NCBI GenBank assembly: GCA_030141605.1
Contig: JAQGDQ010000626.1
Span: forward strand, 60,343-124,342
Origin: Tubiluchus corallicola
Lineage: Eukaryota; Animalia; Priapulida
Reading direction: 5' to 3'
Length of the DNA stretch: 64,000 nucleotides
A program made the position numbers and the translations under genes. This document shows positions 1,198 through 62,555 of the stretch, piece after piece. The stretch's first letter is position 1; each line of letters begins with the position of its first letter. The notes below the pieces were generated by a model that saw nothing but the letters and a program-made list of their open reading frames with translations, ran no database searches and was not told the origin of the DNA.

Positions 1198-1323
1198 CTC
1201 GGTCCACGTTTTTCTGCAATACGATGCGGTTGCATTTAAGAAATCCTCCCGGGGAACTACGCCAGAGCCCTCTTTTGAAGTAAGATTTAAAAAAGCCATG
1301 ACGTAATAGTAACTTGCAAAAGC
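1198..1323 (-). CDS. ENTPD1: ENTPD exon 9
   Basis: AFASYYYVMAFLNLTSKEGSGVVPREDFLNATASYCRKTWTE (compare CD39 AFSAFYFVMKFLNLT...FC..PW.E); tacAG/GTAAGC. Confidence 0.93.
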
Positions 1324-4300
1324 CTGTAAAGAAAATGATAAAATCGGTGAAATGGAAAAGAAAGTTACAGCTAATATGTAAACTTACGTGGTTGTTGTGG
1401 AGATCGCTGGCGTCTATTAGAATTAAATAGAACATTGTAGAATGTTCCGTTAGAATAATCGTCCTACCGTGTAGAATGTTCTAGAAAGAAACTTCTAGAA
1501 GCTTCTCGGGTGCCCTATATAAGGCGAAGCAGGCCGATGAGACACACACAGATTCACATGAACGCCACTTACACATTCTCCTGAATACCTGTATTTTCAG
1601 ATACACTTAAACATTTTCCAGATTTTCACATTTACTGCAAACATTTCGTGTTCCTTCATACTTTTGTGTTGTAGAAGTCTCGCTTAATAAACTAGTTTAA
1701 TTTGACGAAGTGTTTTCTGGTTTTCTCTACGAGCCTTGCGAAAGAAACAAAACACAACAGTGGTCACAATTACAAAGTGCTCAAACATTATTCTAGATTA
1801 GATGTATACAAATATTTGTTCGCAAATAGAGTAGTCCCTACGTGGAATGATGTTAATTATGACATGGTTAATGCATCAAACATTGTCTGTTTTAACACTA
1901 GACTAACAAGCTGCAACTTTTTAAACTGGTGCCATTTTAATCGTTTTATGTAAGTTATTGTTCCTTAACTGTTTGTGGTGTCTCTGCGTTTTAAGTTTCT
2001 TTTTGGGTTTCTAAGGTTATTACTAGAGGATCTCGAAGATTTGAGCAGATGTTTAACATTTAGAACGGTATATTATTTGCAGTTTTACTTTTGTGATTAA
2101 AGGAACAATTCTTAAATTAGTATAAATTGAAACATTTATATTTGTACTTACGCTCTATGTGGTATGGCAGTATTATATGTAATTATTTTGTTGTCATTAT
2201 TTCAGCCTGATCATTGCTGCAATATGATAAATAAACCACTTTGATTGATTCAGCAAAAACTTCCATAGTTATTTACGATCAGGCGTTTTAAATGCTAAAC
2301 ATCTGCTTGACACTGCATGGAGTTCTTATTGTTAAATGTGTTAAGAATTGCCTCCTGGCAAACAGCAATATGGGTGCTCTTCATATGCTGAAATCTTTGG
2401 GATCCTCTATTTACTCGTTTAATAATAAAATACTTCTTGTTCAGGTATTTGTTTAATAATTGTAAATTACTTTATATTGTATTATATGGCTAGCATGAGT
2501 GCTATATGCCTGCTGCCATTTTCTTTTATAAAAAAGTATTTCATAAATAAATAATAATAAAATAATTATTTCTTATATAAATAATATATAATATTATTAA
2601 ATATAATAAAATTAATATATTATAATATAATATAATATAATATAATATAATATAATATAATATAATATAATAAAATATAATATAATATAATATAATATAA
2701 TATAATATAATATAATATAATAAAATATATATTTTTATAATATTTTTATAATAATAATATATTTTAAAATAAAAATATTTTTAATAATATTATTAAAAAA
2801 TAAGTAGTTCTTAAATAAATAAATAAATAATACTAAAATAATAGAATGATTCCACCATAAGTGTTCAAAGTGCTAATTAAGCATTAAGAAGGGCAGATTA
2901 TTCTATTCAGCAGTCACCTACAGCTAATAATTAATTAAACCCAAAAAGCTCACTGATTAGAATTGCATTTTGCTTTTTAAGAATTACTAGATTTCAGATG
3001 ACATCATGCGACTGAAAATAGCGCAATTACAAGTTTCATTGTTGTGCCTGATCAACATGCTGGCCATTGAGAAATTTCACTTTTTACACGACATTCGCTA
3101 ATTTTGTTACAATGAGTATCTGCAGGTAAAAACAGCCAATTAAGAGGGTTCTTAAGGTGTCAAGGTCGTTTTGGGGTTTTGTGCCTTTTCAGTAAATTTA
3201 TTAAGTGTTTTATTCTATTTTGTTCAGTAAATGAAGCATTTTTCATTGGGTTACCAGCAGGTTTTTCTCAAATAGTTAAATTATTTGCCTATTTAAACAA
3301 AAATAGCCAACATCTTCAAATAACTAATGAAATATCCAACCGGAATATTTGATTCATGCAAACGCAGGACATAAATTTTTTGCGCGCTAATGACATTTGT
3401 AAAAAAAACTGTGTAGAATTTCATTCACATGTTGGCTGGAGATACGTTGCCATGATGTTTGTGACACGCAGCTGCTATGTTCATTGTCCTGCTGTAACTT
3501 CAAACATCACATTACTGGAATGGACATTGCTAAAGTTGGCATTACTATGGTGAATGAGCCATTATCTGCCTGCCATCTAGAGGCGAGTTAAAAAATCTAT
3601 GCAATTGCACAACTTGCAGTCGTATTCAGCATTAAGCGAGGAGTTACAGTATATAAAAACAACAAAAATAAAGGAAAACCATGAGACAGTAATTGTACCA
3701 GAAAATCTCCATGCAACGCAGGTTGAGCAGACATTGGCTGGAAGGGACAGTCAGTACAATTCACTACCAAGAGTATTTGCAGTTTTAGCTGGCAGGCCAT
3801 GTAGTCACTGGTTCCTTGAAACTCATACGTTTTGTTCTAGAATAAACAATGTCAAATACAATGCTGCAGTACAATGCTGCAGTACAATGCTACAATACAA
3901 TGCTGCAATACAATGCTGCAATACAATGCTGCAGTACAATGCTGCAGTACAATGCTGCAGTACAATGCTGCAATACAATGCTGCAGTACAATGCTGCAGT
4001 ACAATGCTGCAGTACAATGCTGCAATACAATGCTGCAGTACAATGCTGCAGTACAATGCAAAATATCAATTTGTGATGCATCAACAAGAAAACAGACTAG
4101 AATCTCATTGCAGGCATGTTGACTATCTTTGTGTGAACAATTTGCAATCAAAGCTTCAGATCTTTCTCTGCATTTCACTCAAACTTTGGTTACGTATGTT
4201 TCCAGCAATACAATATAAATGTTGACAGGCATATCAAAATTCTGCCAAATTTTTTGAAGATACGAACGTTTTAAACAATAAAAATACATTCCATCTTTAA

Positions 4301-5765
4301 CATCCACTATTGCACATGAGGCATCTGCGGCGGATTCAGCCTTTAGAAAAAGGGTGGGCCCAACGAAAATGCAGCTAGGGGGTCTGGGGAACCCCGACTA
4401 CCAATGCATTTTACTGCATTTTAAACCATTTTTCTTACTATTTCCTCAAGGAAATCCAATAGTTTAAAACTCATTAAGTCACCTCAAACTTTTGACTCTT
4501 AATTACACACCAATATACACACTAGTATAACATATAATTGCGCACAGCGACATCTTTACCAAAAACTTCAATTATTACTTAAAGGGCACAGACATTTTTA
4601 CACTGAAATCATTAATGCAGAATTAATAAAATAAAAATGTAATCAGTTACCTCAGCATGTTGTGGGAGACTTAACAATGAACCCCAAGCAGTTACTGCTT
4701 CTTCGTCACCAACACACGGTTTCCTGAACAGTTCGGTACCGGTTGAGTACGTTGAGTTGCCTGTCGGTGCGCAAGGATTCTCCACAATTGTAGTAAAATT
4801 TGATGCCTGTGCAAAACAATGGGTACATAAAATGAAAAAACTTGCGCGAATGGAAGTTGAACATGCACAACTTAACCCTTTCACTACAGAAGGTGTGAAG
4901 CATTTTTGTTTGTTATATAGCGTTTTACAGTTACAAGTGGCGACATCTGGCTTCAATAATTGCATCCTAGTCAATTTCCGGTCATTCAAGTTTCAATGTG
5001 TTCAAGTGATGACGTGTTTCTGTGTAACTCACGATTTAATGTCAACGATGTATGTAAATTTTATTTAGTTTATTTGCTGTAAGTCTCTCATTAATTTCAC
5101 TTAATCGTAATCGATCTTTTGATAAGAAATGAATTAATTTATTAAAGGAATTTATATATCTTGTTTCAGATAAAATGTAATATTTTTGGGTAATGGCGTC
5201 TCAGTGTCAGATATGAAGTAAATGACTAAGGGTCACGAGACGTGAAGATGGTATACAAACAATAAACTGTTATGCTAAGCAAAAATGATGACTTTGTTTG
5301 TCACCGTAAAGCCCAAACAGAAGGTGGCACACTAACGTCTATGTTTTTCTTGTAAGAGACGGAAGGTGGTAGACTGCCGCCCGAGCTCAGCACTAAGCGC
5401 AGTCACCCAGGTCTGTTTATTTTGCTACTACGGCCATGCATAAACGTTATAGAAAAGCTTAACAGCCGTCGGATTGGGGTTGTTTCGCGACAAGTAATGC
5501 TAACCAGCCAATCAGCATCTGAAGCCAGGTGCATTCCACAATATTGTACTGTATCGTACGTTCCCAAGCAAAATCACTTGTAGATCATTGATGAAACGTA
5601 TGTTTAGTTTGACAGTTCAGCATTCTTATAAAATGATTGCATATTATGGATTAGTATTGTCTTTTGTGAAAACTGTGATTTCTAAATATAAGTACATGCT
5701 TATTTATGAGGGTGTGCAAGTGTGTGTGTGTGTGCGTGTGCGTGTGTGCGTGCGTGCGTGTGTGC

Positions 5766-5814: not shown

Positions 5815-8800
5815 CATGTGTGTGTGCATGTGTGTGTGTGCACATGTGTGTGCATGTGTGCTCGTATGTTTGCTCGTATGTGTGTACATGTGTAGAAATA
5901 AAACTAATATTTAATATTGGCACTCAATAACGAGCAACTATTTGTTTATTTACAAGATTCTGTTCTAGTAACACACCACAAGAAGTTATTGTCACATGCG
6001 AGACGTCAATGTGGCCCAGTTAAAAAGCAACGACATAGTGAAAGGGTTAAAAATATTTATCTAGAAGCCAAGAAGGATTTCAGAACACAACTTACAAGCA
6101 TCAGACGAGTATTTAAATGCAACCTCTGTTCTATAACCCTTTGCCATCATCACATTCCACATTGTCCAATCACGAGCAAGCTGCAAAAGTTTGTTAGCAT
6201 GTCAACCAAAAGTACTAGCACTTACCACGACTAGCGCCGCCTTGAATCGATTCTCCGCTTCCATCTTGCCGTAACAGAGGTAGCTATGCGTGTACACGGT
6301 GTAACTTTCTCCGTAAAGGAGTAGATCAGCACTATAGTTGGCAGGTATCACAGTACCGGTGCTGGGCTCAAATGTGAGCTGAGTCGATGCCCCACCCATG
6401 TCTAATGCACCAACTGTAGGCTTTCTTGCCACAAGTTTTGGCTGCACGAAAAATAAATCAGCAAATGTTTTAAAATGGCATTTACATTAACCTGCAAATT
6501 TAATATTGGAGTAGCAAGTTAGTAAGTAAAGTTAAATTTAAAAAAGAAGTCGTTTAATCGAAAGACAAATTTCAGGCAATTGCCTTAATATGTCAGTGCC
6601 TGGTTAGTACTTGGATGGGTGACCGCCTACGAATACCAAGTGCTGCAGGCTTGCAGGATGCCCACGCTGTATCTCGACACTAGGCAGAGGAGCTGAGCAA
6701 GCAGCCAATGGCTAGAGGGTGGAGGAGGTCAAGTGACCCTACGGCCATGTGTAGAGGAGTAAACCTTCCAAATTAGGAGTGGAGCCCCGAAGACGGACCA
6801 GTGCAGCATGCTCACTGACTCTGGCATCTCCTGCAGCCAACCTGATGCCAAACGTATCGCTCCGCTTTGCTTTGGACTACACCAGGGAGGAAGAGAGGGG
6901 GTTCCTGTTGTCTGGGCAACTCGGGATCTCCATACACCTTGCCCAGGCATGTGCCCTGGAGAGGCCATTCCAGTGGTTCGAGGATCGGACTGCTCAGCCA
7001 CAGTCGACGCTGCAGCTCCAACAATGTGATCAATAACTGACTCTCTTGGCGCACACTCCATTGTCTTCCGAGACAGAAGGATGCCAACAACAATACTTGT
7101 TCCAGCTGCTATATTATTCCATATTAGTGGCACGACATTTTATTGAAAATTTTCTTAAGTCGATGTTGCAACGTACAAAGTGATAATTAGACTTAGTCCG
7201 AGCATTTTCAGAGTTAAGAGTAAAATATTTTTGAAAAAAGGGAAGGCAGCAATAGTTTATCATGGAATTTATTCATAAATACAGCAGTATGAAAACGGTT
7301 AACACACCTAAAGAAAAAACACTGTTGCTAGTTAACTGTCTAAACAATTCATTGAATACACACCTCATTCAAATCTCCGTTTAAATAGTTTACTGTGACC
7401 CATGAAAATGAACCTTCCTTTTCTCCAGAGATAATGCTGGCATTTTTGTAGTCAAATACAGAGTTCTGCATAGCGGTCCGTACGGCTGACATGATGGCTT
7501 TACTTGCTTGTGGATCAGAGAGGCTATAAAAAATTTAACTGTTTATGTAACAGAAGATGTAAAGCATCACATAAGAAAAATTTATGCACAGCTCCTTGAT
7601 GCAACATGAAAAACATTATGATGACGCGAATGATAAGTTGAACCAACAAATGTAGTTCAGCAAGATCAAACTCTTATAGGATAAGCCTTTTCACAGTTCC
7701 AGCGATTGATGATCGTGAAAAGGTCAACAGTTAAGTGTACCAGACAACGCCTCGCAGTCCATGCCGTTGTAATTGTAACAGTTTTAACAGCTAGCTAGAA
7801 CCTTACCTAGTTCATTTTTCATCGTTCCCAAGCAAAGTCCTGCTAGTAAATCACTCTATGCACAGACTAATGCATAATTAAATAAAATCCACGTAAAACA
7901 ACTGACGTTACTGATCTGATGCAGCAGACGGCTTTGCTTTACCCACATGTCACCTAACGGTTATAGTTAAGATGCGTTGCCATGGCACGCTTAACCTTTT
8001 CCTACAGCAACTGCGCGTACGCACAACAAAAAGGCTTATTCGTTGACAAAAAGAACATTTTCATGAGCTCAAACTACAGAGTAGCTCATTTAATAATACT
8101 TAGATTATCAAGTTGATATAATTATTAGTAGATGTTGTACTGCTAATGAATAAAGGTGTTTTTGCAAAATCTTTAAAATTGAATATGAGCGAATTTCGTT
8201 TTAAGTAAACTAATAAAAAATTCTCTAATCCCTAAATTGCAAAAAAAGGGATACCAAGGCAATCCTGCTTTAGAATTGCGGAACCCCGAGAGATGACCAA
8301 GTTGAAAAATGAAAAACATCACATTTCCAGTCATATCGTATCAGCGGCCAAAACCACTGTACTTTATCGTCAGGTGAAAGAGAAAAGCAAATAGATCAGG
8401 TTAAATTAGTAATTCTCATTTTTGCGGGAATTTTTTATCGTATATATTAATGGCCATTTTTTGGACATTTTTTGCAAAACTTAAACGTCTGAGATCTGAA
8501 GAACGGGAACGTGCCGAGGGGGGTGCTGGCTATGGATAGATAGCCCGTTTAACTGTGGGTGTAGTAGGCGTATTTAGAATTCGCGAGAGGGTCACGGCGT
8601 CCCGTAATTTCCCAGACCCAACTCCCGATTTTTTCGAAATTTTGACCAAGCAGCCTGCAGAAAAAACGTTCTAGTGGTGCCTGGTGGGACTCTCGGAAGG
8701 AGATATATGGCTCTTTAGAAAGAGAAGAACAGGGCTACACGATGATGTGGGCCATGCTTTAAAACACATCCACCAAAAGGAGTGCCGACGAGTTAATTAG

Positions 8801-11800
8801 ATGTTCTATTTTTAGCAATTTTCTCTTAGAAAACTGCTGACGCAAAGCCATTGTTCTGACGTCATCCATTATACTCTGCATATAACTTTAATTCAGTAAA
8901 AGCTGCTACTGGCTTTGCGTTATAAATGAGGACTATGTAGCATGTTTGCGTATTTTTGATTATACGTGTATTTATACGCAAAATTTTTTGCAGGGCCTTT
9001 GCTAGTTTGTATTAATAGCACAAAATTATCATGCTAAAAGAATATAAGCATGTAAAAACACAGAAATACAGTAAACAAAAAAAATCAAGTGAGAGAAGTC
9101 ACGTGTTTTCAAACGTCTTCCCACCTGAGCAATCTCATTCCTGCCGTAGCACCAAGATAAAGAGGAGTCGTAGCTTGATGATCTTCTGCAATGATTCGTT
9201 GAGCGTCGTTCAGTAAACCTTCGATTGCCTTTCCGGCGGCATCGGGATTTTTGTCGTAGGTAGAAATTCCAGCTGACAAGGCAAAACATAATCAGAACGT
9301 TAATCAAATTAGGAATTTCCACATACGTACCACATATACACTGTCTTCAAATGTGACGCACCATAATCACTCCACGTATAAAACGAAAGCTAAGACAAAG
9401 AGGTAATGAACCACTAAAGTACAGCAGGCAAAAAAGAAGGGAAAATCGTATATATTAATTTCGCTGGTATATATATATATATATGTAAGAAAGCAGTACA
9501 TATTCTGTTCTGTTTATTCTGTTCTAAAAACGCATTAGTAACCTAAACAGCGCAATTATTATAACGCCTTTGCTTCCCGACTGACTACATACTAAATTCA
9601 AGCTGTTTGTATCAAGCGAGATCTATTTGCGGATTTATACAGCTCCAGGCACCCGAGTTTAAACTTTAGGCCACTTTATTTTGTCTGTAACTTGCGGCTA
9701 TTACAACCAGATTAGTACCACCTGAAATTCTACCAAGTCTAGCAAGATATTGATAAGAAAGATAGGTGGTTTCAAACAAACAGAAAGAAATTCATCAGTA
9801 GAAATATGAATAAATCTCGTAAAACATTTAATTTATATGATTAAGCAGCATTGATTTTTTGCTTCTGGGACGTATTTCAATTTTTTTACATTACTTTCCA
9901 TGAAAATTTTGGTTTCGCTTAACGACATTTTGCTGGAACACATTAGCGTCGTTAAGCGAGGACTTACTGTAGTTTTCTTTTATACGTTTACGTTGTATAA
10001 ACTATATAAACATTTCCTACATTTACCAACAAGCAAAAGAGTATTTGGCATAAAGTACTATAGAATTTACCAACACATCACAAACGTACACCTTTTCCAC
10101 ATTCACAAACAAACTTATCTAATAATGCATACCATCATGTTGAAAAGACCCGGCCTCCTTGACGATGGCTGTTCCTGCGTTCTTGTGAGGGTCCCATTTG
10201 TAAACGAAGAGTTTTGTATGCGTGGAGCCAGCATCAATTACAATTCCATACTTAAAAAGAAATAAGGACTTTTGTTCAAGAAAAAAATCCCGGTTTTTCT
10301 AGCTGTTTTCAAACATTAAAAGACAACATTTAAAATAGTGTCTACATCTAACATTGTAACCTCGCTTATAGCTGATGGAATGTCCTAAACAAAACTTCAA
10401 ATTCCGCCTTGGCTTGCTAATGGTCAGTTTATTCTGAGAAAATAAAATAAAAGCATTTTGCAAATTCAGGTGATTATACAAGATTATTATAAAATAGGAA
10501 CTAAATCAAAATATTAAATCATTTAGGTATGAATTACACAATTTTTACAAATTACAACAACTGTAAACTAGTAAAATGCTACATGAAATAGAAATTAAAC
10601 TTCTCTTTTAAGTAATCAAAAAAATTAATAATCATCATATTAAACCTACATATATTGGCAGGCTGCGTGAGATTAAGGATATCCATAAAATAAGACCAAA
10701 AATCCATAAAATAAAATTTAAGGAATTCATAAAATAAGAAATGCATAAAATAAAAAAAATATTTTTTTTGTGATTTTTTGTACAAAGTAACGAGTTGTAA
10801 GCATTGGCAACACTGAAAACGAACGTTAGAAGGAGAGAAAGAGAAAGAAAACAAACCAACAAAAGCGCATTTCCGGATTTGCTATTTTACATTGTTGTTT
10901 TCTCATTGTCTTTTTGTTATCAAGATGGCGAAGTTTCAACCAAAGCATGAGCTGGAGTTCGGTCTGAAACTGGCGAAGTTTCAACCAAAGCATGAGCTGG
11001 AGTTCGGTCTGAAACTAAGTCCTGCGTGTTTAAAAACACGTTTCAAGCACTCCTGTTTTTACTTTTTAATTGATTTCCCCCTGGGCATCTCGTTCCAGAT
11101 AAAGTCTATTTCTTATTTTATTGATATCCATAAAATAAAATTTCAAAAATCTATAAAATAAGCTATTTTATTTATTTTATACATATCCATAATCTTATGC
11201 ACCCTGTTTATTGGCCAGCAATGGCATTTAAACTTAAAGGTATCAGAAAACTGTAGAAACAGGTCATAAGCATTTATCAAATCATTGAATTTGGCTAAAT
11301 TAAGTATAAACAGATAGCAAACACCAAGACAGCGTAACAGTCTACTGTCCTACTGATATCTGCATAAAACCAGATTCAATCACCTGAGTATATAAGTACA
11401 TGCTAACAAATTTAAAGCAAGAAATTCATTCAAGGCCTACAAGGTGGCAGCACATGACAGTATCAGTTTATCCCCAACATCCCTATTATTGCTGTTGCAT
11501 TACTAGTCGCTGAGAAACAGGTGCAATCATCACATTAATGAATCAATGAAATAATCACTCATTGTTCAATAATTTCTTGAATAGTAAGTTAAAATTAATA
11601 AATGCAAACGATAATGATGTTTAGTATGTTCTCTGTGGGGTCGCAATATGAAACAGGGTCCTGGAAAGGGGTCACCGTCAACAAAATGTTGGGAACTACT
11701 GTTCTACCCTATAAAATCCCTCCTTGTGTTTTCTACCAGTAAGTAAAAAACGAACAAAGAAAAAACAAAATATTTTACTTATTTTAGAATTTCCTTTTTT

Positions 11801-14800
11801 CAGTTTTAATAATAGTTGGTTTTGCAAGAATGTTTCGTTTCGGTATCGGTTTTTAGTGTTTGATAAATTTCGGTTTCGGTAACACCCCTGGTTGCTATAA
11901 AATTCAATAGAATTGTTATTACAACTGGTATCTAGCTATACAAGAATCAAGGCGATGGTTGCAAGCTAATCTTGTACAGATCTAATACTTAGTTTAGCCT
12001 TTCTTTGAAAAACGATGCGCAACATTAAAATACAGTAAGTCCTCGCTTAATGATGCTAGCGCGTTCCAGCAAAATGCAACATTAAGGGAAACATCGTTAA
12101 ATGAAGCGAAGACATCCATAGAAATTAATGTAAAAGAACTGAGATACGTTCCAGAGGCAAAAATCAATATTGATGAAATCATATAAATTAAACGTTTTAT
12201 GAGTTTTACTCGTGTTTCTACTGACTAATTTCTTTCTGCTTGCTTGAAACCACCTATGTATCTTACTAATCTAGCTAGTGGTTTCTCTTTAGTTAACGTT
12301 TAAGTCTAGACGACAGTTAAACAATAAACACTGCAGCAAAGTCGAAGTCAAGCCTTGGAAATTTTATCTAGAAACTTAGTCTGGTTGCTAGAACAACAGG
12401 TTGCAGGTGAAATTCCTTCGCATAAAGTTTGCTGCCAGGTCTAGCTTGACACAAACGGCTAAGCATTTAGTGGTCAGTTGGCAAGTAAAAATGCATGTAC
12501 TTATATAATAATAGCAGTGTTTACGTTATCAGTGCATTTTTAGAACAAAATAATAAAATATGCACTGTTTTACAGCATCAAATTAAGTGAAAAAGTTGTT
12601 AGTCATATAAAAATTTGCATTGAGTAAATAAAAAAAGTAGAAAAACTGTCATTAAACCGAAACGTGCATGCCAATTTCAGGTAATACTAATCTGGTTGTT
12701 ATAGCAACAAGTTACAGACAAAATTCCTTGGCATAAAGTTTAAACTCGGGTGCCTGGAGCCGTATAAATCCGCAAATAGATCTCGCTTGATACAAACAGC
12801 TAGAATTTAATACATAGTCAGTCGGGAAGCAAAGGCGTTATAATAATTGCACTGTTTAGATTACTAATGTGTTTTTAGAACAGAGTAATGCAGCATGTGC
12901 CATTTTAATGCTTCAAGTTAGCTAAAAAAATTGCAGATAAAATGAAATATGGCTGTGAGCAAAGTAAAAAAATCATCGTTAAAATGAAGCAGGCGTCGTT
13001 AAGTGCGAAAAATGTGTCTAACGTTCGGCGTCGTTAAAACGAAACATCACTAAACTGGGAGTCGTTAAGCGAGGACTTACTGTATTAACGCAAAAGTAAA
13101 TTTACATCACTCTCATGTCTGAGACTGTTGGCATAAATGACCGAGATTGCTACTAAACCTCCAGCACCAATCAGAAACGAGACTCCTGTTAGAATCCACC
13201 AATTGCTGCAGCCAAACGTTTTATCATCCTGCATCACTACAAAAAAAGCAGAAAATCAATAATATAAAGATTTACAAGCATTTTTGTAATTCTAGTAAGA
13301 TCTTTGATACGTTTATTGCAGCGTATAACTCATGTGAACATTTGCACCCAAGTTTGATAAAACATAACTACTCTACTGTCATTCTTACATCACACTTGGA
13401 CAATAAACAGCTTTTATATATATATATAATAATCTTTATTTGCCATTAAAATACATTGATAATCACTGATAAAAACTTTACAGAGATGATCAATCCGTGT
13501 TAGTTAATAAAAACTTACACTGCTAAAGACAAATGCGTCAGTGCAATCTAAACTACTGTGCAGTAATGGAAAGTAACGACGAATAAAATCAAACATATTT
13601 ACAACTATGCACAAAAAAATGAAAAAGCTTTTGCATTTTTTACGTATAAACAGCCACACAAAATGGATGAAAATTCGATTGTTTTTCGAAATTGTTTTCA
13701 TTCTAAACATGTTATTTGTTTTTACAGACATTTGTAAAAAACGTCTCTACTGTTTAGTGAAGAAGAAGCAAATGACCAAGTGAAAGCCGAGATTGGTGGT
13801 CAGTGACTGCCAGGCATATGTTCTATAATTGCACTTGGTGGTTCAGTGTCTCATATTAATCCTGTAAGACTCATCATAATCAGACCCATTAAGTAGGCTG
13901 TTCTTAACACCAGTTCTCGTCTGATGACCGAAGTTAAGCAACGTAGAGCCTGGTTGCTACTTGGATGGGTGACCGCCTCGGAATACAAGGTCCTGTAGGC
14001 TTGCAGGATGCCCACACTGTATCTCGACACTAGGCGGAGGAGCTGCACAATCAGCCAACAGCTAGAGGGCGGAGGAGGTCAAGTGACCCAACGGGCATGT
14101 ATAGAAAAGTAAACCCTCCAAATCAGGAGTGGAGCCCCGAAGGTGTGCGCCCTCGAAACGTTCAAGGATCGCACTGCTCAGCCACAGTCGACGCTGCAGC
14201 TCCATCAATGTGATCAATAACTGATTCTCTTGGCGCACACTCCATTGTCTTCCGAGACAGAAGGATGCCAGCCAAAGTAGACTGTACCAGTGAGTGTTAA
14301 TTCCAGCTAGCTGTGCTAAACAGTAAGTTTTTTAGACAATATGGCTTGTTTAAAATGAAGTATCACAACATATAATTGTAAAAACATACGACAAATTAGT
14401 ACAAGCACTCCTATAATAAAATAATTGCACATACAGTACCAGTGGCGGCTCGTGGAACTGCAGCACCCCCTATTTTCACTCAATATTCTCGATAATATTC
14501 CATGTAATGAGTCTTTTTTTAGTTCTTTCTTAATACTTGTATGGAACCAGAGCACATGAGGGTAGTACTGTTTGCTTCAAAGCCAAGTACAGTGCACTCC
14601 AGCAACATGGTGTTTGGCTGTTATGTGCATGCACATATTTGAGCCTAGGTAGAGAAAGTACTGTCGCTCACACAGTTTGCTGTCAGTTGTCACGTGCTTA
14701 CCGTGAATGGATCACGACTGAACTGCGACAATTAGGCTATTAGTGATTAAAAAATGTTTTTTCATTTAGGATCTTATCAAGTTTATGTATAAACTTTCAT

Positions 14801-15201
14801 GTGTTTGTTTATTTAAAATTACAATTGCAAATTACAACATTAAAATTACATATGTTTGTTTCGTTTTACACAATATTAAAACAATGGCTAAAAATTTTTG
14901 AAGCAGCACCCCCGCTAATTTTAGCTACAAGCCACGACTGTACAGTACTATTAAAAACTAACATACCTCGTTTGCCAAAATAAACAACATCATCATCACT
15001 GAGGTTGTAGCTGCCGACAGTACGGTCACACTCGAGTATTTGGTAAGCTGCATTTCTGATGACGTAACTTGATTTAACGATGCAGCCCTTTTGTATGCAA
15101 AATTCAGCAATCAGACTGTTTACTTCAGTGCTAGGGTCCACATCAATTTCTATGCTACCAGAAGCTCCACCACTCAGTAAGCTAATCACTTGTAGATGCA
15201 T
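1198..15201 (-). CDS. ENTPD1: Ecto-nucleoside triphosphate diphosphohydrolase (CD39/ENTPD1/2/3/8-like) with an N-terminal ubiquitin-like domain; 9 coding exons visible, 3' end (ACR5, C-terminal TM) beyond the left edge
   Basis: Exons 15201-14967, 13236-13106, 10250-10133, 9272-9125, 7523-7364, 6441-6226, 4806-4651, 3836-3699, 1323-1198. All are GT-AG and phase-compatible, totalling 1428 nt = 476 codons with no stop. Motifs DAGSTHT, ATAGMRLL, ISGEKEG..W, DMGGASTQ. The exact paralogue is not resolvable. Confidence 0.93.
1393..1759 (+). mobile_element. Solo LTR (367 bp)
   Basis: 7-bp terminal inverted repeat TGTTGTG...CACAACA, perfect 5-bp TSD GTGGT (1388-1392/1760-1764), TATATAA near 1516, AATAAA near 1686. 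Confidence 0.88.
1765..2240 (+). mobile_element. CR1/L2-type LINE 3' fragment, interrupted by the solo LTR
   Basis: (NLRG)HNYKVLKHYSRLDVYKYLFANRVVPTWNDV, typical of the CR1 ORF2 C-terminus, followed by a 3'UTR and AATAAA. Confidence 0.75.
2545..2840. repeat. (AATAT)n / AT-only low-complexity tract
   Basis: Direct reading. Confidence 0.9.
3699..3836 (-). CDS. ENTPD1: ENTPD exon 8
   Basis: NKTYEFQGTSDYMACQLKLQILLVVNCTDCPFQPMSAQPALHGDFL, matching the CD39 GTG..C..C..C.F..P..GDF pattern; tctAG/GTACAA. Confidence 0.9.
3857..4060. repeat. 13-bp minisatellite TACAATGCTGCA(G/A), about 15 copies
   Basis: Direct reading; explains the MLQYNAAVQCC ORFs. Confidence 0.95.
4651..4806 (-). CDS. ENTPD1: ENTPD exon 7
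   Basis: ASNFTTIVENPCAPTGNSTYSTGTELFRKPCVGDEEAVTAWGSLLSLPQHAE (NPC..G and PC cysteines); cacAG/GTAACT. Confidence 0.9.
4876..6046. mobile_element. piggyBac-type non-autonomous element (1171 bp) containing a (TG)n tract
   Basis: TTAA|CCCTTTCACTA ... TAGTGAAAGGG|TTAA: perfect 11-bp TIR and TTAA TSD. Confidence 0.85.
5712..5892. repeat. (TG)n microsatellite
   Basis: Direct reading. Confidence 0.95.
6226..6441 (-). CDS. ENTPD1: ENTPD exon 6: ACR4
   Basis: PKLVARKPTVGALDMGGASTQLTFEP...LYGESYTVYTHSYLCYGKMEAENRFKAALVV; tgcAG/GTAAGT. Confidence 0.97.
6598..7093 (+). mobile_element. 5S rRNA-derived SINE (SINE3), copy A; 5'-truncated head, longer body, (CAA)n tail
   Basis: GCCTGGTTAGTACTTGGATGGGTGACCGCCT...GCAGGCTT is the 5S 3' half, with no oligo-T terminator; body shared with 13904-14274. 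Confidence 0.88.
7364..7523 (-). CDS. ENTPD1: ENTPD exon 5: ACR3 (catalytic Glu)
   Basis: SLSDPQASKAIMSAVRTAMQNSVFDYKNASIISGEKEGSFSWVTVNYLNGDLNE; tatAG/GTGTGT. Confidence 0.96.
7665..8020 (+). repeat. Dispersed repeat; inverted copy at about 38345-38715
   Basis: For example gtgaaaaggtcaa...aacagctagctagaaccttacctagttc is the reverse complement of 38560-38665. Confidence 0.8.
8438..9005 (+). mobile_element. Non-autonomous Helitron, internally deleted copy
   Basis: A|TCGTATATATTA ... GCAAAATTTTTTGC hairpin ... CTAG|T; homologous to 25607-26328. Confidence 0.85.
9125..9272 (-). CDS. ENTPD1: ENTPD exon 4: ACR2
   Basis: AGISTYDKNPDAAGKAIEGLLNDAQRIIAEDHQATTPLYLGATAGMRLL; gtcAG/GTGGGA. Confidence 0.96.
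9500..9969 (-). mobile_element. Partial inverted copy of the Tc1/pogo-type MITE at 12033-13082
   Basis: Ends TTAAGCGAGGACTTACTG|TA; internal blocks are reverse-complementary to 12176-12280 and 12680-12890. Confidence 0.8.
10133..10250 (-). CDS. ENTPD1: ENTPD exon 3: ACR1
   Basis: YGIVIDAGSTHTKLFVYKWDPHKNAGTAIVKEAGSFQHD; AG/GTATGC boundaries. Confidence 0.96.
12033..13082. mobile_element. Tc1/mariner (pogo/Tigger-like) MITE, 1050 bp
   Basis: TA|CAGTAAGTCCTCGCTTAA ... TTAAGCGAGGACTTACTG|TA. Confidence 0.9.
13106..13236 (-). CDS. ENTPD1: ENTPD exon 2: N-terminal transmembrane helix
   Basis: (V)MQDDKTFGCSNWWILTGVSFLIGAGGLVAISVIYANSLRHESD; acceptor tttttttgtAG, donor GAT|GTAAAT (phase 0). Confidence 0.88.
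13904..14274 (+). mobile_element. 5S rRNA-derived SINE (SINE3), copy B; boxes A and C present, internal deletion
   Basis: 5S-like 13906-14002 (AACACCAGTTCTCGTCTGATGACCGAAGTTAAGC...TGGATGGGTGACCGCC...GTAGGCTT); degenerate TSD aagtaggctgttc/aagtagactgtac. Confidence 0.9.
14440..14940. mobile_element. hAT-type MITE, 501 bp
   Basis: CAGTGGCGGCTCGT ... ACAAGCCACGACTG imperfect TIR with perfect 8-bp TSD TACAGTAC. Confidence 0.85.
14967..15201 (-). CDS. ENTPD1: ENTPD coding exon 1: ubiquitin-like (beta-grasp) domain, 78 aa
   Basis: MHLQVISLLSGGASGSIEIDVDPSTEVNSLIAEFCIQKG...LECDRTVGSYNLSDDDVVYFGKR aligns by eye to ubiquitin (ITLEVEPS, LEDGRTLSDYNI). Phase-1 donor G|GTATGT at 14966; candidate acceptor ttcattaAG at 15214-15215. 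Confidence 0.75.
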
Positions 15202-18200: not shown

Positions 18201-19525
18201 ACACTTACACTTGCACCATACAAATATGTAGCAAAAATACTGCCGACAGTTCAATATTATTAATCTATGTGCTGTTTCGTAAATCGCAAACAAAGTTTAC
18301 ACAATTTACATATTTTATAAACATATAGCCAGGCATTTATACTGTAAGACCAAAGTGCAATTTTAGCTGCCAATAATTCTTAATCAGTGAATTGAATTAA
18401 GTTGCACTCGCACAGCATCTACTGAGAAACTGAAGTAAGACGGCAAATATGACTTCTAGCATGTTTTCATGTCTACCTAAGTAAGCAATTAACGTCAAAT
18501 TAAAACGCTCTCAATATCGTGTTTTAGCTTTAATGGGATGCAGTCACGTGCTGCCATCTGCACACATGATAATGAAGAAAGCATGTGACAGAAACAGTTA
18601 CGCATGATTGTGTGTTGAGACCTTAACCTGAGACCAGAAAAGAATTCAAAAACTATTTCTGAAATGATAAAAATACGTTGTTAGATTTAAGTATTGAAAG
18701 CCATCTGTTTAATATTGCTGAAAGTGAAATAATTGTTTTTTTCTGAAACAAAGACTTTTTAGGTCCAAACGGTAGTACGAACACCCCACCCGGAATCATC
18801 AAGAGGACCTGACAGGAGGAGTTCTGTTTCTGCCGCTTTTTCTCACAGCATCAGAAACCCAGCCAGCCGCCGACAGTGCACAGCTTCGATAGAGTGACAA
18901 CCACACGAAAGCTGAATGTTACGTTATATTATATGGCTAGCTTATCGCAAGAACGAAAAAGTTGATGGCGTCACCAAACACAGGCAGTAATCTATTCACT
19001 GCCGTTATTTTGCTCGTACGTTGCACCACATTGCAGCCTAGTGCAGTGTTGCAGTTTTCCGTTCATAAAAATAACTGGAAAGTGTGGTCTTTATTTTTAC
19101 TTGCTAACTTTAATGAAGCTACGTGAAACTCTGCATATCCCCAGCCTCTGTTACAGATATTATGAGAATCTACTAAACAGCGATACTTGGATCCGTTCTA
19201 TTACAACTACTTAACTACTAATTTTTAAAGGTCTTCGGAATTTAATTAAAATTACGTTTGTATAAGAAACTGCAAGCGTGACATTCGATCATGCAAATCG
19301 GTTTTGCTTGCATTGTTTTTGCCAGCATTTGCGTTTTCCTGAGTCGATTCCACAGCTGATTACGTGAAAAGAATAAACAATCTACGTTTAGAACTGCGCT
19401 GAGTGACTGTGCATAGCAGCTCTGATCTCAGTGTACTGTGCAAGCAGCGAGCTGTTACAACAAGTATAGCTACACTGCTGTAAGCGTGTTTTCTTGTGCC
19501 CTAATTATGTTCCAACTTCAGCTAA
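15214..19525. promoter_or_regulatory. Divergent intergenic/5'UTR region between ENTPD and ARID5B; must contain both promoters unless 5' exons lie further out
   Basis: The two ATGs point away from each other, 4.3 kb apart. TSS positions cannot be determined from sequence. Confidence 0.55.
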
Positions 19526-19955
19526 ATGGGACCTTCAAAAATTGAGGTGGGTTTAGTTTTGCTTTTAAACCAGCTCAGCTATTAATAAAATTGACAGTAA
19601 ATTTATGTACATGAATTGCTTGAATATTTAATTTAGCTTCGTGTAGCTAAGTGTTACTGTAGTGTTTTAATTATTATAGCATTATAGGATGCTTTTATCG
19701 ATTTATTGTATTGATCGTTATAAAGGTGTTGTTGTTATAATGGGACCTTCAAAAATTGAGGGGGGTTTATTTTTGCTTTTAAACCAGCTCAGCTATTAAT
19801 AAAATTGGCACTAATTTTATATACATGAATTGCTTGAATATTTAATTTAATTAGCTTCGTGTAGCTAAGTGTTGCTGTAGTGTTTTAATTATTATAGCAT
19901 TACAGGATGTTTTTATTGATTTATTGTATTGATCGTTATAGTGGTGTTGTTGTTA
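19525..19955 (+). repeat. 214-bp tandem duplication of the ARID5B start codon, first donor and intron start
   Basis: ATGGGACCTTCAAAAATTGAG at 19526 and 19740; copy 2 has GG instead of GT at the donor. Confidence 0.92.
19526..19546 (+). CDS. ARID5B: ARID5B-like coding exon 1 (MGPSKIE)
   Basis: ATG GGA CCT TCA AAA ATT GAG|GTGGGT. Seven codons, phase 0, equivalent to ARID5B MEPNSLQ, and joins in frame to FLGNPCG. Confidence 0.8.
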
Positions 19956-20219
19956 GAACTTATTTTCTTAGTAAGCACAATTTCTTTTGTTAATCTAGAG
20001 GCCTAGTATTAATTATCGATAATAATTATTAAACATTTTAATAGGGTAAATCAATATTAGAACACACATTGTAGCATTGTAGCAAGTATAGCTGATTTTT
20101 AGCAAAAAATATAATATTTATAAGGCTTTTGTTCCGACTGTGCACTTGATAAATGAATCTGCAGATTGTACAGTATACACCAATTAAATCATTGATGATT
20201 TAAACATTTTCTTGTTTAG

Positions 20220-20480
20220 TTTCTGGGCAATCCTTGTGGTGAGCACGGAGCGTACGTTTTCTTCAAAAGCCTTCAATACGACGATGCCGTGACAGGCAAG
20301 CAAAAAACTTTGACCCTTGGACAATTTTTCTTCCTGAAGATATCTAATGATTTTCCATTTTGCATCGGAGAAATACAGCTACTTTGGGAGGATCGAAACG
20401 CCAAGGAACGCCTGTCTAGTTCCAGGCTGTACTTCCTGCCGGAGGACACGCCAAATGGAAGACAGAGCAGGGATGGCCAG
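20220..20480 (+). CDS. ARID5B: ARID5B-like exon 2: BAH domain
   Basis: FLGNPCGEHGAYVFFKSLQY...LTLGQFFFLKISNDFPFCIGEIQLLWEDRNAKERLSSSRLYFLPEDTPNGRQSRDGQ, matching ARID5B WVGSPCGLHGPYIFYKAF...IAELQLLWEE...SSSKLYFLPEDTPQGR; tttAG/GTGAGC. Confidence 0.95.
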
Positions 20481-21866
20481 GTGAGCCTAGTGGTAATTTT
20501 GTTCCCAAAAAATCAATTTGTAAACCCCCATTAATTGTACAATTCAGAGCTGTACTTAATTGCACGCGTAGCTGCTGGCAGTTTCTGTGTGTCTTAAAAT
20601 TGTGTTTAAAAGAGGAAGTGAAGATCGTGCTTGCCAGAATTATTGATTATTTATCTGTTGAATTAATTGTGTAATCTCACTGATCCCTATTGAGCTGTTT
20701 TCCACGTAGAATGAAAGTCGAAATGAAAGAAAATTTAATAATGTCGTGCTAATTAGTACTAATGTTTGTAATAAAGCTTCATTAAGCATTAAAGCGTACT
20801 GAATCAAATGAACGAAAATGATATCTACTAATTGACAGAAAAAGTGACAATTATTAATGTCAAGCATTGCTTTTTTGTCTACTGAATAGCATTTTTAGAC
20901 AAAGCCTTTGATTAGGTGAGGTTGCTTTGTTCGTTTTATTCTTTCAGTATTTCACACAATAAAATGTCTCGAGTCGCCAACTGGTATCTAATGAATGCCT
21001 TAATCAATGATCTCTCTGCTGTAAAAGCTTTAGCATCTTGCCGTCAACAGGCTGGGCTGTTTATAGAAGCGTAATGTATACAAAGGTCTACCTGCCATGC
21101 TTCACCTGTTTCAAAAATGTTGGAAGTGATTGAATGGTTGCTGCGTTTATGTACAATTTCTCTGCGTTACAGCCTGCTTACCCAGAGCGACGTTTTACCC
21201 ACATTAATTAATGAACCGCAATTAGGCATAAAATATTAATCACACAGTTACTGTACCGGTTATTTTGATTTTAGTTGAAACTGTGTTGAGTAAAATTGTG
21301 GCCCCAGGCATTCGAAGGTTCATTCGGATGTTGTAATATATAAATGATGAAGAAAAACCCAAGGTACAGTAGGGAACATTTGTGATTTTTGTTGCTGATC
21401 GAATATTCAGTTTTGCTGTTTGATCGAATAACGAAAATTTGTCGCTATTGTAGATTACTTTGAAAGTCTGAAATTGGACATCTTAATTGATTTTTTTCTA
21501 AGAAGCTTGCTAGCCATTATTAACAGCAAAGAAAAAATGGTGATCAAAATTATATTAGTGACACTTTTGTTATTAATATGCGTCCTGAACACTAAGTAGG
21601 AAAGTAATCGAAGCATTAAATTTTTAACGCCTAAAAGCTTGCTTCGACCTAATTAATGAACCATCGTCTTTATATTGCAAAGAGAAACAGAAATCAGCGC
21701 TTTTAATCACTGCTGCTGCTACCCGCTGCAAACTGAGCTAAGAAAATGGCTTTAGTTTAGAGAGCGATAGACCGACCTGTTTAGATTGCTGTTCGAAATG
21801 CCTGTATGTATAATTAAGGCGCTAACATTGAAGTGGAAGGGGGTGGGATCAGCACGAATGTGTTGC

Positions 21867-34866: not shown

Positions 34867-35323
34867 ACTATGATAACATTTACCTCTTATGTTCTTACTA
34901 ATACCCTGTCTTTCATTTACGCGCCTACTTGACATACATTAATTTGTGTTTCTTCTGAAGAACCATTTTACATTGATTAAACCATCGTAAAACTCCTTTC
35001 TACACTGTATGTAGTACAATTTGGAGGTGGCAAATTCACAAATTGCCCATGTTAAACGCCTAGCATAAATGTTGAAAATGTTTTTCTTCATACGCATTCT
35101 ATGACGTAATGCCAGACTCCCGTGGCCGTAAATGATGAAAACAAATTACTTCGATATCTAAAACAAAAACAAATTGATATCTGTGTTCATTGATAAAAAT
35201 TTGTTTTCTTAAAAATTTTAACAACAAAAAGCTTTTTTCATTAATCAGAAACCTACAGTGTAGTCTGTCTTATACACATACTGAATTTTAGAATAAATGG
35301 TTAAGCAAACGAGTCAGTGAATT

Positions 35324-36705
35324 AAAACATTGAATTAATAAATGAGCGAATGAGTAAATCAGTGAATAAATGGATGGACGACTGACTGACCGGCTGACTG
35401 ACTGGCCGACCGACCGACTGACTGACTGACCAACTGACTGAGCGACCGACGGACGAAGGGAGGAAGGAATAAGTGAATGAATGTGTTAATAATGAGCCTG
35501 TGAATTAATTAATGAATAAAAACATTGAATCAATAAATGAGTGAATGAGTAGATCAGTGAATAAACGGATGGACGACTGACTGACTGACTGACTGAGCGA
35601 CCGACCGACCGACGGACGAAGGGAGGAAGGAATAAGTGAATGAATGTGTTAATAATGAGCCTGTGAATTAATTAATGAATAAAAACATTGAATCAATAAA
35701 TGAGTGAATGAGTAGATCAGTGAATAAACGGATGGACGACTGACTGACTGACTGACTGACCGACCGACCAACCGACGGACGGATGAAGGGAGGAAAGAAT
35801 AAATGAATGAATGAGTTAATAATGAGCCTGTGAATTAATTAATGAATAAAAACATTGAATCAATAAATGAGTGAATGAGTAGATCAGTGAATAAACGGAT
35901 GGACGACTGACTGACTGACTGACTGACCGACCGACGGACGAAGGGAGGAAGGAATAAGTGAATGAATGTGTAAATAATGAGCCTGTGAATTAATTAATGA
36001 ATAAAAACATTGAATCAACAAATGAGTGAATGAGTAGATCAGTGAATAAACGGATGGACGACTGACTGACTGACTGACCGACCGACCAACCGACGGACGG
36101 ATGAAGGGAGGAAAGAATAAATGAATGAATGAGTTAATAATGAGCCTGTGAATTAATTAATGAATAAAAACATTGAATCAATAAATGAGTGAATGAGTAG
36201 ATCAGTGAATAAACGGATGGACGACTGACTGACTGACCGACCGACGGACGAAGGGAGGAAGGAATAAGTGAATGAATGTGTTAATAATGAGCCTGTGAAT
36301 TAATTAATGAATAAAAACATTGAATCAATAAATGAGTGAATGAGTAGATCAGTAAATAAACGGATGGACGACTGACTGACTGACCGACCGACCGAGCAAC
36401 CGACGGACGGATGAAGGGAGGAAAGAATAAATGAATGAATGAGTTAATAATGAGCCTGTGAATTAATTAATGAATAAAAACATTGAGTGAATGAGTAGAT
36501 CAGTGAATAAACGGATGGACGACTGACTGACTGACTGACTGACTGACTGACTGACTGACTGACTGACTGACTGACTGACTGACTGACTGACTGACTGACT
36601 GACTGACCGACCGACCGACCGACCGACCGACCGACCGACCGACCGACCGACCGACCGACCGACCGACGGACGGACGGACGAAGGAAGGATGGAATAAATG
36701 AATGA
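35324..36705. repeat. Compound minisatellite (about 8 units, mostly 150-165 bp) with embedded (GACT)n(GACC)n
   Basis: Recurring aaaacattgaatcaataaatgagtgaatgagtagatcagtgaataaacggatggac. Confidence 0.92.
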
Positions 36706-39395: not shown

Positions 39396-39776
39396 CGAAC
39401 TGTATTAAATTAATACAATGAAATACTCAAATGTTTTTCAGTTTAAAATGTCGTCTTCCCCATTCAGCATTATATAGCCGCGGTTTTCCGTTTACTTAAA
39501 TTCTATAAATGCTCGATCAATAAGTACGCCCGTTTATGTGCTTCTCCGTTGTATTGAAATGAGAAGAATTTTGATTTTCCGATAAACTTGCCTAATGTGT
39601 TGTGGGGCTGACAGCGGCAGAGGCCGTCTAATTAAAGAATTTTATTCTCACTCATGTTCACGAAGCTGCAGGCAGCATAGGTGAAAAACCTGTTTTAGCC
39701 TAGTTCTTTAATCACAGTATATTAAGTACCTATACCCGAGCTTTTTCGTGAACGTTGCGTTTACCTGAAAAGGACA

Positions 39777-41283
<1,507 letters not shown>

Positions 41284-41639
41284 ATGACTCTCTTTTCACT
41301 TTTTGGTACAAAAAGAAGATGTTGTTTAAAAATGAACAAAAAATTTGTGAGCAGTATAAATTGTACTTCTTTTCGATTTACAACTAAAATGCAATGAAAT
41401 TGTGATAAAATATTACATTTTTAGGTTGTAGTTTTTAATTTGCAATATTAGAACAGATCGATTTGGAATTACAATAATTATCATTACGAAAAATGCAAAA
41501 ATTAGCGTCAAATTTAGTATTGCAGTGGATCATAATAATTTGAAAATTGCAAATTAATCGTCGTCAGTCATCGTAGATGTAGGAAAAGCGTTCAACTACC
41601 ATATCGCTAGTGCCATAAGCTTGGAAGTAAATTCGGTTA

Positions 41640-42452
41640 GTTTAAACATATTTTATTATAGGATTGGATCAGACAGTTTGAACAACATGATTTAGGATCC
41701 TCACCACAACAGACTTTATACACCATTTACAAAAACATTTACAGTAAGAATAGACTATAACTACACAAGCTGACAAGTTTTACTGCAAGACTACATTAGA
41801 CATTAGTAACATTTACAGTAAGAATTGACTATAACTACACAAGCTGGCAAGTTTTACTACAAGATTACATTAGCCATTAGTAACATTTACAGTAAGAATT
41901 GACTATAACTACACAAGCTGACGAGTTTTACTACAAGATTACATTAGACATTAGTAACATTTACAGTAAGAATAGACTATAACTACACAAGCTGACAAGT
42001 TTTACTACAAGATTACATTAGACATTAGTAACATTTACAGTAAGAATAGAATATAACTACACAAGCTGACAAGTTTTACTACAAGATTACATTAGACATT
42101 AGTAGAAAATGACGGTTAGAAAATATTAATGTACGAATATTTAAGACTGATGCATTACATATATAGAAACTACTGGAAGCGTTTAGTACGTAATATAAAG
42201 TCATGTATACATTGGAATATTTTACAGTAAGTAACATAGTTAAATTCATCTTTACCGAATAATAACAACTTCAACAGAGCATTAGTTCCTAAGGCAGCTA
42301 TATTAAGGTTTTCAGGCAGAAGTATTTCATTTAATTTATCAAACATAAAAACCCTAGTTTGTTGATACAATGGGCAGTGCAACAAAAAGTGTTCAACAGA
42401 CTCAAATTGAAATCCACACTTACAATTCGGCAATACTGGATGACCGTTATTA
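41640..42452 (-). mobile_element. LINE 3' end (C-terminal CxC..H....C motif) with five 74-bp repeats in the 3'UTR
   Basis: CKCGFQFESVEHFLLHCPLY...LLFG...ILRTKRFQ; homologous to 49541-50133 and 55040-55539. Confidence 0.85.
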
Positions 42453-43107
42453 ACAGCCTTTAGAGAAAAGGTTAAATGTGGGTTAAATTCGGTTAAAAAT
42501 AGTCAAATTTAATGATCGTCAAATCAGCGCGAGAATCGATAATTAAAAAATTAAACGATTTTGCCGCGATACGCCGTTTCAAATGCATCTGATAAAATTT
42601 GTATTAATGTAGGTATGAGATTATATTTCTTATTCTGCAGATCTGTCTCTGATAATCTATCTGCCAGTAAAGTGGAAATGCCCGTCGGGGGTGGCGTATC
42701 TGATACCATCCATAGTGATGCCTATAATGCGTTTTCGGGGGTAATAAGTCATAAGTCGTTTATTTCAGTAATTATGAAATGCATGTTGATTACAGCAGAG
42801 TTTCGTAAGCTAACACGTTTGGCAATCTTTTGAATTGCAGAGAGCGAAACTGACATCCTGCGGAAATGGGTCTTGCGACTTTTTAGCGGTGCATAAATTG
42901 ACATCTTTTGCTGCAAACTTTGCCTTAATTTCAATATTCGTGTTATTGCGCTGCAACCAATTTGACAATGAAAATATGGACGTTTCTCCGTGATAGAGGA
43001 CAGTGATCGTTTAATGGTTTTAACTGAACTGACGAAATTTTTTAATATCTGTAACTGTAAGCCAAATCGTAAAAAAAATTATACGTGTTACATTTCTGAA
43101 TTTTTCA

Positions 43108-59615: not shown

Positions 59616-59911
59616 TTCTTTTATATATTTTTCGTAAATTGTTACAGTATCGTAGAGTAATCGCACACCACCAGAATAACTTAGTCACTATTATAGATGG
59701 ATGAATGCACTCCTGTGTATTCGTGCTGCGAAAAGATAATCTTTCTAAGATTTCATACTACTTATAAAAACGTTTTCTATTAAATAGCGGTTGACAGTCA
59801 CGCTATGCAGCTGTGGTTAATAAAATTTCATAATAAAATACGTTATTACGAAGTTTGAGCCGCAAATAACTTGACAAATAGCTCATTTTTTGAAAGGTTA
59901 TAAAATTTAAA

Positions 59912-60813: not shown

Positions 60814-60930
60814 GTGAGTATTGAGTTCTTATTTCTCTGAATTCGGTCGTTTTGCTTTATTATGGGTAATAATTGTCCATAAAAGTTATTGACTTCCATC
60901 CCGATAATTTGTACTACTCAAAACAAGTGA

Positions 60931-62487: not shown

Positions 62488-62555
62488 TTAATATGTAAAG
62501 TTTTGTTTATTCATGACAACCTTTAGCTTTTAATTGCGTTTTCTCTAAGCATAAA

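Follow-up and report, generated by a model that had tools for sequence, protein, structure and literature searches.

A stretch of 64,000 nucleotides from the priapulid Tubiluchus corallicola (contig JAQGDQ010000626.1, positions 60,343 to 124,342; referred to below as the window) carries on its minus strand nine exons of a predicted CD39-type NTPDase, in which a ubiquitin-like (Ubl) domain of 78 residues precedes the first transmembrane helix (TM1). This Ubl-TM-NTPDase architecture can be accepted with high confidence, being supported by the predicted fold, by full-length homologues, by an equal linker length and by a conserved intron position. The original prediction had supposed a one-off fusion, which did not hold. 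As far as sequence comparison can tell, the Ubl-NTPDase is a wider family, spread across six invertebrate phyla. It is a real and conserved domain architecture that has apparently not been described. With regard to function, the reading to which a probability of about 0.5 is given here is that of a CD39-type NTPDase with a docking Ubl, which, together with motifs in the C-terminal tail, routes the enzyme between the cell surface and endosomes or lysosomes.

The ubiquitin-like exon and its gene

The coding part of the first coding exon starts at ATG 15201, comprises 78 codons and one base (235 nt) and is closed by a gtatgt donor after 14967, all as predicted. An in-frame stop is located 10 codons 5' of this ATG. 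The 235 nt represent only the coding part, and AG-ending stretches directly 5' of the ATG allow room for an exon of the 5' untranslated region. The phase-1 base joins exon 13236-13106, which has a polypyrimidine-AG acceptor and a GT donor in phase 0; the splice from 14967 to 13236 is a predicted one in this species. Joined by coordinates, the predicted model has 9 exons, every intron being GT...AG, and encodes 476 amino acids with zero stops, confirming that the Ubl exon leads in frame through the TM exon into the apyrase conserved regions (ACR1-4). In the model, the Ubl (1-78) is followed by a linker of 10 residues that contains GCSNWW, by TM1 (about 92-114) and by ACR1-4, with motifs at residues 128 (DAGS), 203 (ATAG), 245 (EKEGSFSW) and 278 (DMGGAS). 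Among the GDA1/CD39 features, ACR1-ACR4 and the catalytic Glu of ACR3 are all present, and the TM helix ahead of ACR1 is seen both as a hydropathy peak (residues ~92-114) and in the alignment. The short cytosolic N-tail, however, is not found; in the model, as in 25 relatives, TM1 is preceded by about 90 residues that include a folded Ubl. Past exon 9 the gene leaves the low end of the window, and ACR5, TM2 and the C-tail lie outside; the C-terminal TM helix is seen in the aligned full-length relatives.

Taken alone, the 78 residues show weak likeness to ubiquitin, with an identity of about 23%. Their top Pfam match is Rad60-SLD (E 0.0014), followed by ubiquitin (E 0.015). The domain misses the curated cut-off of every Pfam family (18.8 against 23.8 bits and 15.5 against 25.4 bits, respectively), the best sequence match in the PDB has an E of 0.024, and the AlphaFold model from the single sequence is poor, with a predicted local distance difference test score (pLDDT) of 48. 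With relatives included, the likeness is borne out. From a 61-row alignment (60 relatives and the window sequence), AlphaFold gives a model with a pLDDT of 95.2 and a predicted template modelling score (pTM) of 0.83, in the beta-beta-alpha-beta-beta-(alpha)-beta order of the beta-grasp fold. Foldseek returned ubiquitin, archaeal ubiquitin, NEDD8 and SUMO for this model (E 3e-6 to 1.5e-5), the ubiquitin matches having an E of about 4e-6 and TM scores of 0.81-0.85. In VIA-align, the top match was Rad60 SLD2 (Z 13.4, root-mean-square deviation (rmsd) 1.1, 71 aligned), and a ubiquitin fusion reached Z 12.5 (rmsd 1.5, 71 aligned). Many Ubls lie no more than 2 Z units apart, so that the fold is clear and the subfamily is not; identity to the solved structures is 8-25%. 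In addition, a profile of 60 homologous Ubls, from which the window sequence was left out, gives the window exon 72.4 bits, compared to 7.7 bits for the best of 2000 shuffles and 7.4 bits for the next six-frame match in the window, where the Ubl exists as a single copy. The domain behaves as a Ubl subfamily of its own.

No di-Gly follows the last strand in the window protein, which reads FGKR-VMQDD there. The predicted absence of a C-terminal GG extends to the relatives, since no GG was found within 10 residues after the last strand in any of 21 full-length proteins (0/21). A cleavable ubiquitin fusion was rejected for lack of di-Gly. A ubiquitin pseudogene or stray repeat was also rejected, because the domain is single-copy, is only about 23% identical to ubiquitin and has the N-termini of NTPDases as its best relatives. 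A species-specific fusion was rejected on finding the Ubl-TM1-NTPDase layout across six invertebrate phyla. As a separate observation, the Atlas holds clusters of 73-84 amino acids at 0.91-0.94, two of them with minority Rad60-SLD labels; these were not used as support.

The same layout in invertebrate relatives

A search for the same combination of Ubl and GDA1_CD39 elsewhere, proposed with the original prediction, was successful: the Ubl-TM1-NTPDase layout is seen in 25 full-length proteins. With partial models counted, it occurs in molluscs, a brachiopod, an annelid, arthropods, echinoderms and a hemichordate, the count of six phyla being our own assignment of source names. The mollusc sources are Crassostrea, Ostrea, Mya, Mactra, Mercenaria, Ruditapes, Patella and the land snail Candidula (partial). 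Other sources are Lingula, Owenia, Strigamia (the first unit of a three-unit model), Chamberlinius and, with Ubl and TM only, Chionoecetes, and the deuterostome sources named are Acanthaster, Asterias and Saccoglossus. The alignment of the protein P0017 to the window model starts at residue 1 and has 43.6% identity over residues 1-338, and P0164 has the closest window-like Ubl among the full-length proteins (42%). P0164, P0249 and unit 1 of P0192 have ATGG for ATAG in ACR2, and are on long branches. P0192 (Strigamia, 1697 amino acids) displays three NTPDase units, probably three tandem genes fused, with the Ubl on the first unit only; this unit is without part of ACR3, probably owing to a missed exon.

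A search with exon 6 brought proteins labelled ENTPD8/1/2/3 and yielded 80 NTPDases, 12 of which have a full N-terminal Ubl, with one further Mya model partial; the Ubl scores of these carriers are circular, as they belong to the profile. No Ubl was found in the 49 named vertebrate matches of this search (0/49; 48 labelled ENTPD8, with full ENTPD1/2/3 sequences outside the comparison set), and none in its cnidarian matches. A word-seeded search of the 78 residues alone against longer proteins gave 0 of 108 candidates, a sensitivity miss, since homologues exist. A profile of the Ubl only gave 343 matches against 1.84 billion representatives, and among the best 150, to which all figures refer, 100 were tandem multi-Ubl proteins without NTPDase motifs. 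The 50 single-domain matches comprised 11 full NTPDases, 1 partial, 1 fragment of Ubl and TM, and 37 short open reading frames (ORFs). A precomputed Pfam label for a Ubl is attached to just 2 of the 80 and 11 matches listed, and public databases carry the Ubl-bearing proteins under plain ENTPD names.

Several observations bear on the splicing of the Ubl exon in these relatives. Unbroken frames of 593-637 amino acids exist on contigs of 1.9-3.7 kb from public runs, including at least 11 such entries of 613 amino acids in an oyster cluster of 134 members. As the gene has introns, full frames on contigs of cDNA size are best read as mRNA. P0083, from a contig of up to 183,793 nt, is identical to P0003, from a 2,133-nt contig, over 81 residues; it continues with G-K and a stop, as expected of a phase-1 donor. 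At the column of the window junction, 35 of the 37 short ORFs have Gly (30), Ser (4) or Cys (1), each encodable as N-G-T, and the remaining 2 break one or two residues later; Gly at this column was found in none of the 21 full-length proteins. The short ORFs have the look of a Ubl exon translated on into the intron that follows, and the pattern indicates one shared phase-1 intron position after the Ubl, as read from protein letters and not from the DNA of the relatives. Moreover, the linker from the junction to the Cys before TM1 is of equal length in the window, in P0017 and in Owenia P0227, so that no exon is missing between the Ubl and TM1.

Compared to the vertebrate two-TM NTPDases (CD39/ENTPD1, ENTPD2, 3 and 8; Pfam GDA1_CD39), the window protein has ACR1-4 intact and TM1 before the catalytic domain in the same way, and P0017 is far closer to the solved NTPDase1/2 (E ~1e-83 to 1e-81) than to NTPDase4 (1e-26). 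The difference is in the N-tail, which is short in the vertebrate proteins and is replaced here by an 80-residue Ubl. The juxtamembrane Cys of the window protein is a possible palmitoylation site, as in CD39, whose N-tail is palmitoylated (PMC6788384, available in part). Cnidarian NTPDases (Nematostella, Stylophora and others) display the same two-TM layout and catalytic motifs, but they have no Ubl and no terminal tyrosine motif. Instead, an acidic dileucine stands in the N-tail at the place of the Ubl in all 5 cnidarian-type proteins (P0024, P0026, P0015, P0020 and P0022). With integral (type II) Ubls, such as Rad60 SLD2, the N-terminal domains of NPL4 and TUG, Rad23/Dsk2 and the F0 domains of talin and kindlin, the window domain shares the beta-grasp (~72 aligned, rmsd 1.1-2.0) and the lack of di-Gly, whereas its location on a membrane nucleotidase is different. 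TECR, HERPUD1 and TMUB1 are membrane proteins with a non-conjugatable cytosolic Ubl near a TM helix for partner binding, and are proteins of the endoplasmic reticulum (ER) acting in lipid synthesis or ER-associated degradation (ERAD). Compared to these, the catalytic domain would here be on the other side of the membrane from the Ubl.

The history of the domain was considered with two quick trees, built from 38 and 23 rows of the catalytic part, which have no outgroup and are without most of the 49 vertebrate entries, near-duplicates, ENTPD1/2/3, tunicate and amphioxus. A branch with 97% support separates protostome sequences on one side from the window protein, Saccoglossus, starfish, vertebrate ENTPD8 and cnidarians on the other. 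If rooting on cnidarians is assumed, the tree follows the species tree, so that the Ubl would have been present in the bilaterian ancestor and lost towards vertebrate ENTPD8. We therefore infer that the Ubl arose before the split of protostomes and deuterostomes and disappeared in the line leading to vertebrate ENTPD8. Between close pairs, the identity of the Ubl, used in place of dN/dS ratios, is similar to or higher than that of the enzyme (81% vs 72% in 8 pairs, and 94% vs 95% in 4 pairs).

Possible roles of the cytosolic domain

In CD39, both tails face the cytosol, and the active site faces the cell exterior or a lumen. By analogy, the Ubl and C-tail of the window protein would lie in the cytosol, with the catalytic domain outside or in a lumen, where it is inferred to hydrolyse ATP and ADP. 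The last 8 residues of all 25 full-length Ubl-bearing proteins contain Y-G-[AST]-hydrophobic, and 20 of the 25 have at least two YxxPhi motifs in the last 25 residues; these proteins are related and so do not represent independent events. Such tail motifs were found in none of the 8 vertebrate ENTPD8 proteins checked, which also distinguishes these from the Ubl-bearing relatives with regard to YxxPhi (absent in 8/8). SLC11A1 is sent to lysosomes by YGSI (PMC12247208), and AP-3 sorting of yeast Atg22 requires YGTI (10.64898/2026.10.29.762757), both sources being available in part. The occurrence of the motif in every protein, together with these precedents, favours a sorted enzyme, and the resemblance of the tail to known lysosome-sorting signals leaves the 'ecto' label of these proteins unproven.

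The explanation proposed is that of an old bilaterian form of NTPDase, most likely with a non-conjugatable Ubl working with the tail in trafficking. The cytosolic Ubl, encoded by the first coding exon, would act as a docking module ahead of TM1. The tyrosine motifs of the C-tail, as seen in the relatives, would bind adaptor protein (AP) complexes, while the Ubl, which is close to the membrane (about 13 residues away), would serve as the docking site of a factor for retention or release. Location would then set the ATP-clearing activity, through the amount of enzyme at the surface or in an acidic lumen. The trafficking role of the Ubl is the least certain part of this explanation, its chances being put at even or slightly below. 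The original prediction had named intracellular trafficking, the proteasome or p97, and signalling as possible roles; trafficking is the best supported of these; a link to the proteasome or p97 is without specific support. A broader proposal, which is tentative and somewhat less probable than the trafficking reading itself, is that the ancestral bilaterian CD39 was a Ubl-bearing and actively sorted NTPDase. In this proposal, the Ubl and tyrosine tail together would work as a switch, by which the enzyme is kept in endolysosomes and is let out to the surface, or can control lumenal ATP, and vertebrates would have lost both cytosolic modules as the family expanded into ENTPD1/2/3/8.

Several observations weigh against the explanation with a docking Ubl. 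The trees have the gaps in sampling and the lack of an outgroup described above, and a single clade of the 15 Ubl-bearing rows is neither supported nor rejected by the approximately unbiased test (p-AU 0.097). The Ubl is absent from the chiton model P0012 and from the second and third Strigamia units, through loss, an alternative first exon or an error of the gene model. P0012 has the tail motif all the same, so the two are not strictly coupled, and the sorting motifs are taken from relatives, as the window's own C-tail lies outside the window. Between phyla, the Ubl is less conserved than the enzyme (median identity 27% vs 43%, 325 pairs), which argues against a large binding surface for a single, highly conserved partner. 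Among 13 relatives, none of the Pfam Ubl families stands out, the matches being to YukD (10), UN_NPL4 (9), ubiquitin (9), TUG-UBL1 (9) and Rad60-SLD (7), and the top structural matches are tied, so that the fold points to no partner. Run X1 (same species label, 13.2 million letters in contigs) is neutral on the splice, as it covers neither the Ubl nor the TM exon and has no joint between them.

In the 61 rows, the conserved non-core columns of the Ubl are S7, K/R43, V47, R/K49, E/D37, D71 and Y74. Four other explanations were weighed, each much less probable than the trafficking role. In the first, the Ubl is a SUMO-like or ubiquitin-mimic surface. It would recruit enzymes of the ubiquitin system (Ubc9 or another E2, a ligase or a deubiquitinase) and thereby govern how the NTPDase or its neighbours are modified and turned over. 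The top VIA-align match, Rad60 SLD2, is in a complex with Ubc9, Rad60-SLD is also the top Pfam match of the window domain, and Cys35 is kept in 59 of the 61 rows; SUMO presumably has a Cys at the same place in the helix. However, ubiquitin is within 1 Z unit and the ranks are tied, the Rad60-SLD score is below the Pfam cut-off, and surface positions vary widely between phyla; this explanation is considered improbable.

To the same low degree of belief, the Ubl could hand the enzyme to p97/VCP or the proteasome for quality control or ERAD, in the manner of NPL4-, TUG- and Rad23-type domains. Consistent with this, Mya P0011 passes the UN_NPL4 cut-off (23.9 vs 21.9 bits) and crab P0263 that of TUG-UBL1 (26.8 vs 23.3 bits), and the Ubls of Rad23 and Dsk2 match at Z 11.0-11.7. 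Only these single members pass, however, and P0263 passes for Rad60-SLD as well. Furthermore, judged by the alternation of the fully hydrophobic columns Y46 and I48, R49 would take the place of ubiquitin Ile44. This column is K/R in 70% of the 61 rows, so that the patch normally bound by receptors would be missing. The register is ambiguous by one residue, and in the HMMER alignment, which is shifted, a hydrophobic residue would be retained at that place.

A Ras-association or FERM-F0-like module, binding a small GTPase or acidic lipids and exerting inside-out control of catalysis via TM1, is slightly less probable again. Matches to talin F0, kindlin and SHANK3 SPN at Z 10.6-12.0 are level with or below those to generic Ubls. 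Helix 1 and the next loop are rich in K/R (positions 32, 33, 36, 38 and 43, in 41-74% of rows), but the window domain is net acidic (-4, with a family median of -1), and Pfam matches to RBD and RA are weak (3 and 1 of 13). Control via TM1 would be in keeping with the requirement of the CD39 TM domains for activity and specificity (PMC6788384, in the part available). Finally, it is very unlikely that the Ubl exon is skipped or unused in this species, with a non-coding first exon and translation of the main product from MQDDK in exon 2: an in-frame ATG does sit 2 nt into exon 2, and chiton P0012 and the second and third Strigamia units lack the Ubl, but the exon is intact, its donor has the position and phase seen in the family, the linker has the length of that in P0017 and Owenia P0227, and the family core residues are kept (as measured by the leave-one-out profile).

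In immunity, haemostasis and nerves, ATP signalling is terminated by enzymes of the CD39 family. Cytosolic control of CD39 is described in the available part of a review (PMC6788384) as palmitoylation and RanBPM binding only. No description of a Ubl-NTPDase fusion or family was found in the titles and opening lines of abstracts of the literature searched, a coverage that leaves out most subscription journals and supplements, and the fusion is not mentioned in the available part of PMC9857879. The retention of the Ubl across six phyla, on its own exon and with a fixed intron, implies a regulation in many invertebrates that the vertebrate proteins checked cannot have. The domain escapes routine annotation, and the homology-based 'ecto' label of these proteins is put in question. 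Should the ancestral sorted Ubl-CD39 be true, it would connect a ubiquitin-fold interaction module with invertebrate purinergic signalling in a way that has not been described. The isolated Ubl would be a small soluble bait for partner hunting in oysters, starfish and annelids.

Further features of the window

The exons of the predicted NTPDase gene are collected in Table 1.

Table 1. Predicted exons of the Ubl-NTPDase gene within the window
Feature	Positions	Strand	Basis
First coding exon: 78-residue ubiquitin-like (beta-grasp) domain, no di-Gly, phase-1 GT donor	14967..15201	-	frame, fold model, profile
Exon 2 (residues 79-122): linker with juxtamembrane Cys (GCSNWW), TM1, short stalk	13106..13236	-	hydropathy peak 2.1
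Exon 3: ACR1 (DAGST)	10133..10250	-	alignment, motif
Exon 4: ACR2 (GATAGMR)	9125..9272	-	alignment, motif
Exon 5: ACR3 (EKEGSFSW, conserved Glu present)	7364..7523	-	alignment, motif
Exon 6: ACR4 (DMGGAS)	6226..6441	-	alignment, motif
Exon 7, catalytic domain	4651..4806	-	tblastn with P0017 and P0012; open frame
Exon 8, catalytic domain	3699..3836	-	gene model
Exon 9, last exon within the window	1198..1323	-	gene model

The introns of this gene contain several repeated elements. A 5S rRNA match is located at 13885-14001 (+) inside intron 1 (41.5 bits, cut-off 38), and stretches related to it are found in another intron at 6595-6792 and 6976-7086; these copies are likely a 5S-derived short interspersed element. 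Related elements with terminal inverted repeats occupy ~12030-13080 in intron 2 and 9510-9975 in intron 3, one of them beginning about 25 nt past the donor of exon 2. We take them to be a Tigger/pogo-like miniature inverted-repeat transposable element.

A divergent neighbour gene is located at 19544-20481 (+), where a contig of run X1 joins 19544 to 20218 over a GT..AG gap. Its exon has a weak BAH match (E 0.015), and the piece presumably represents the N-terminus of ARID5B. A tandem duplication of about 215 nt (92%) at 19525-19958 spans the region of the neighbour's splice donor. Large tandem or simple-repeat arrays at 35300-36700, 39700-40780, 41630-42460, 45470-47160, 51050-53050, 59900-61360 and 62530-64000 occupy much of the right half of the window.

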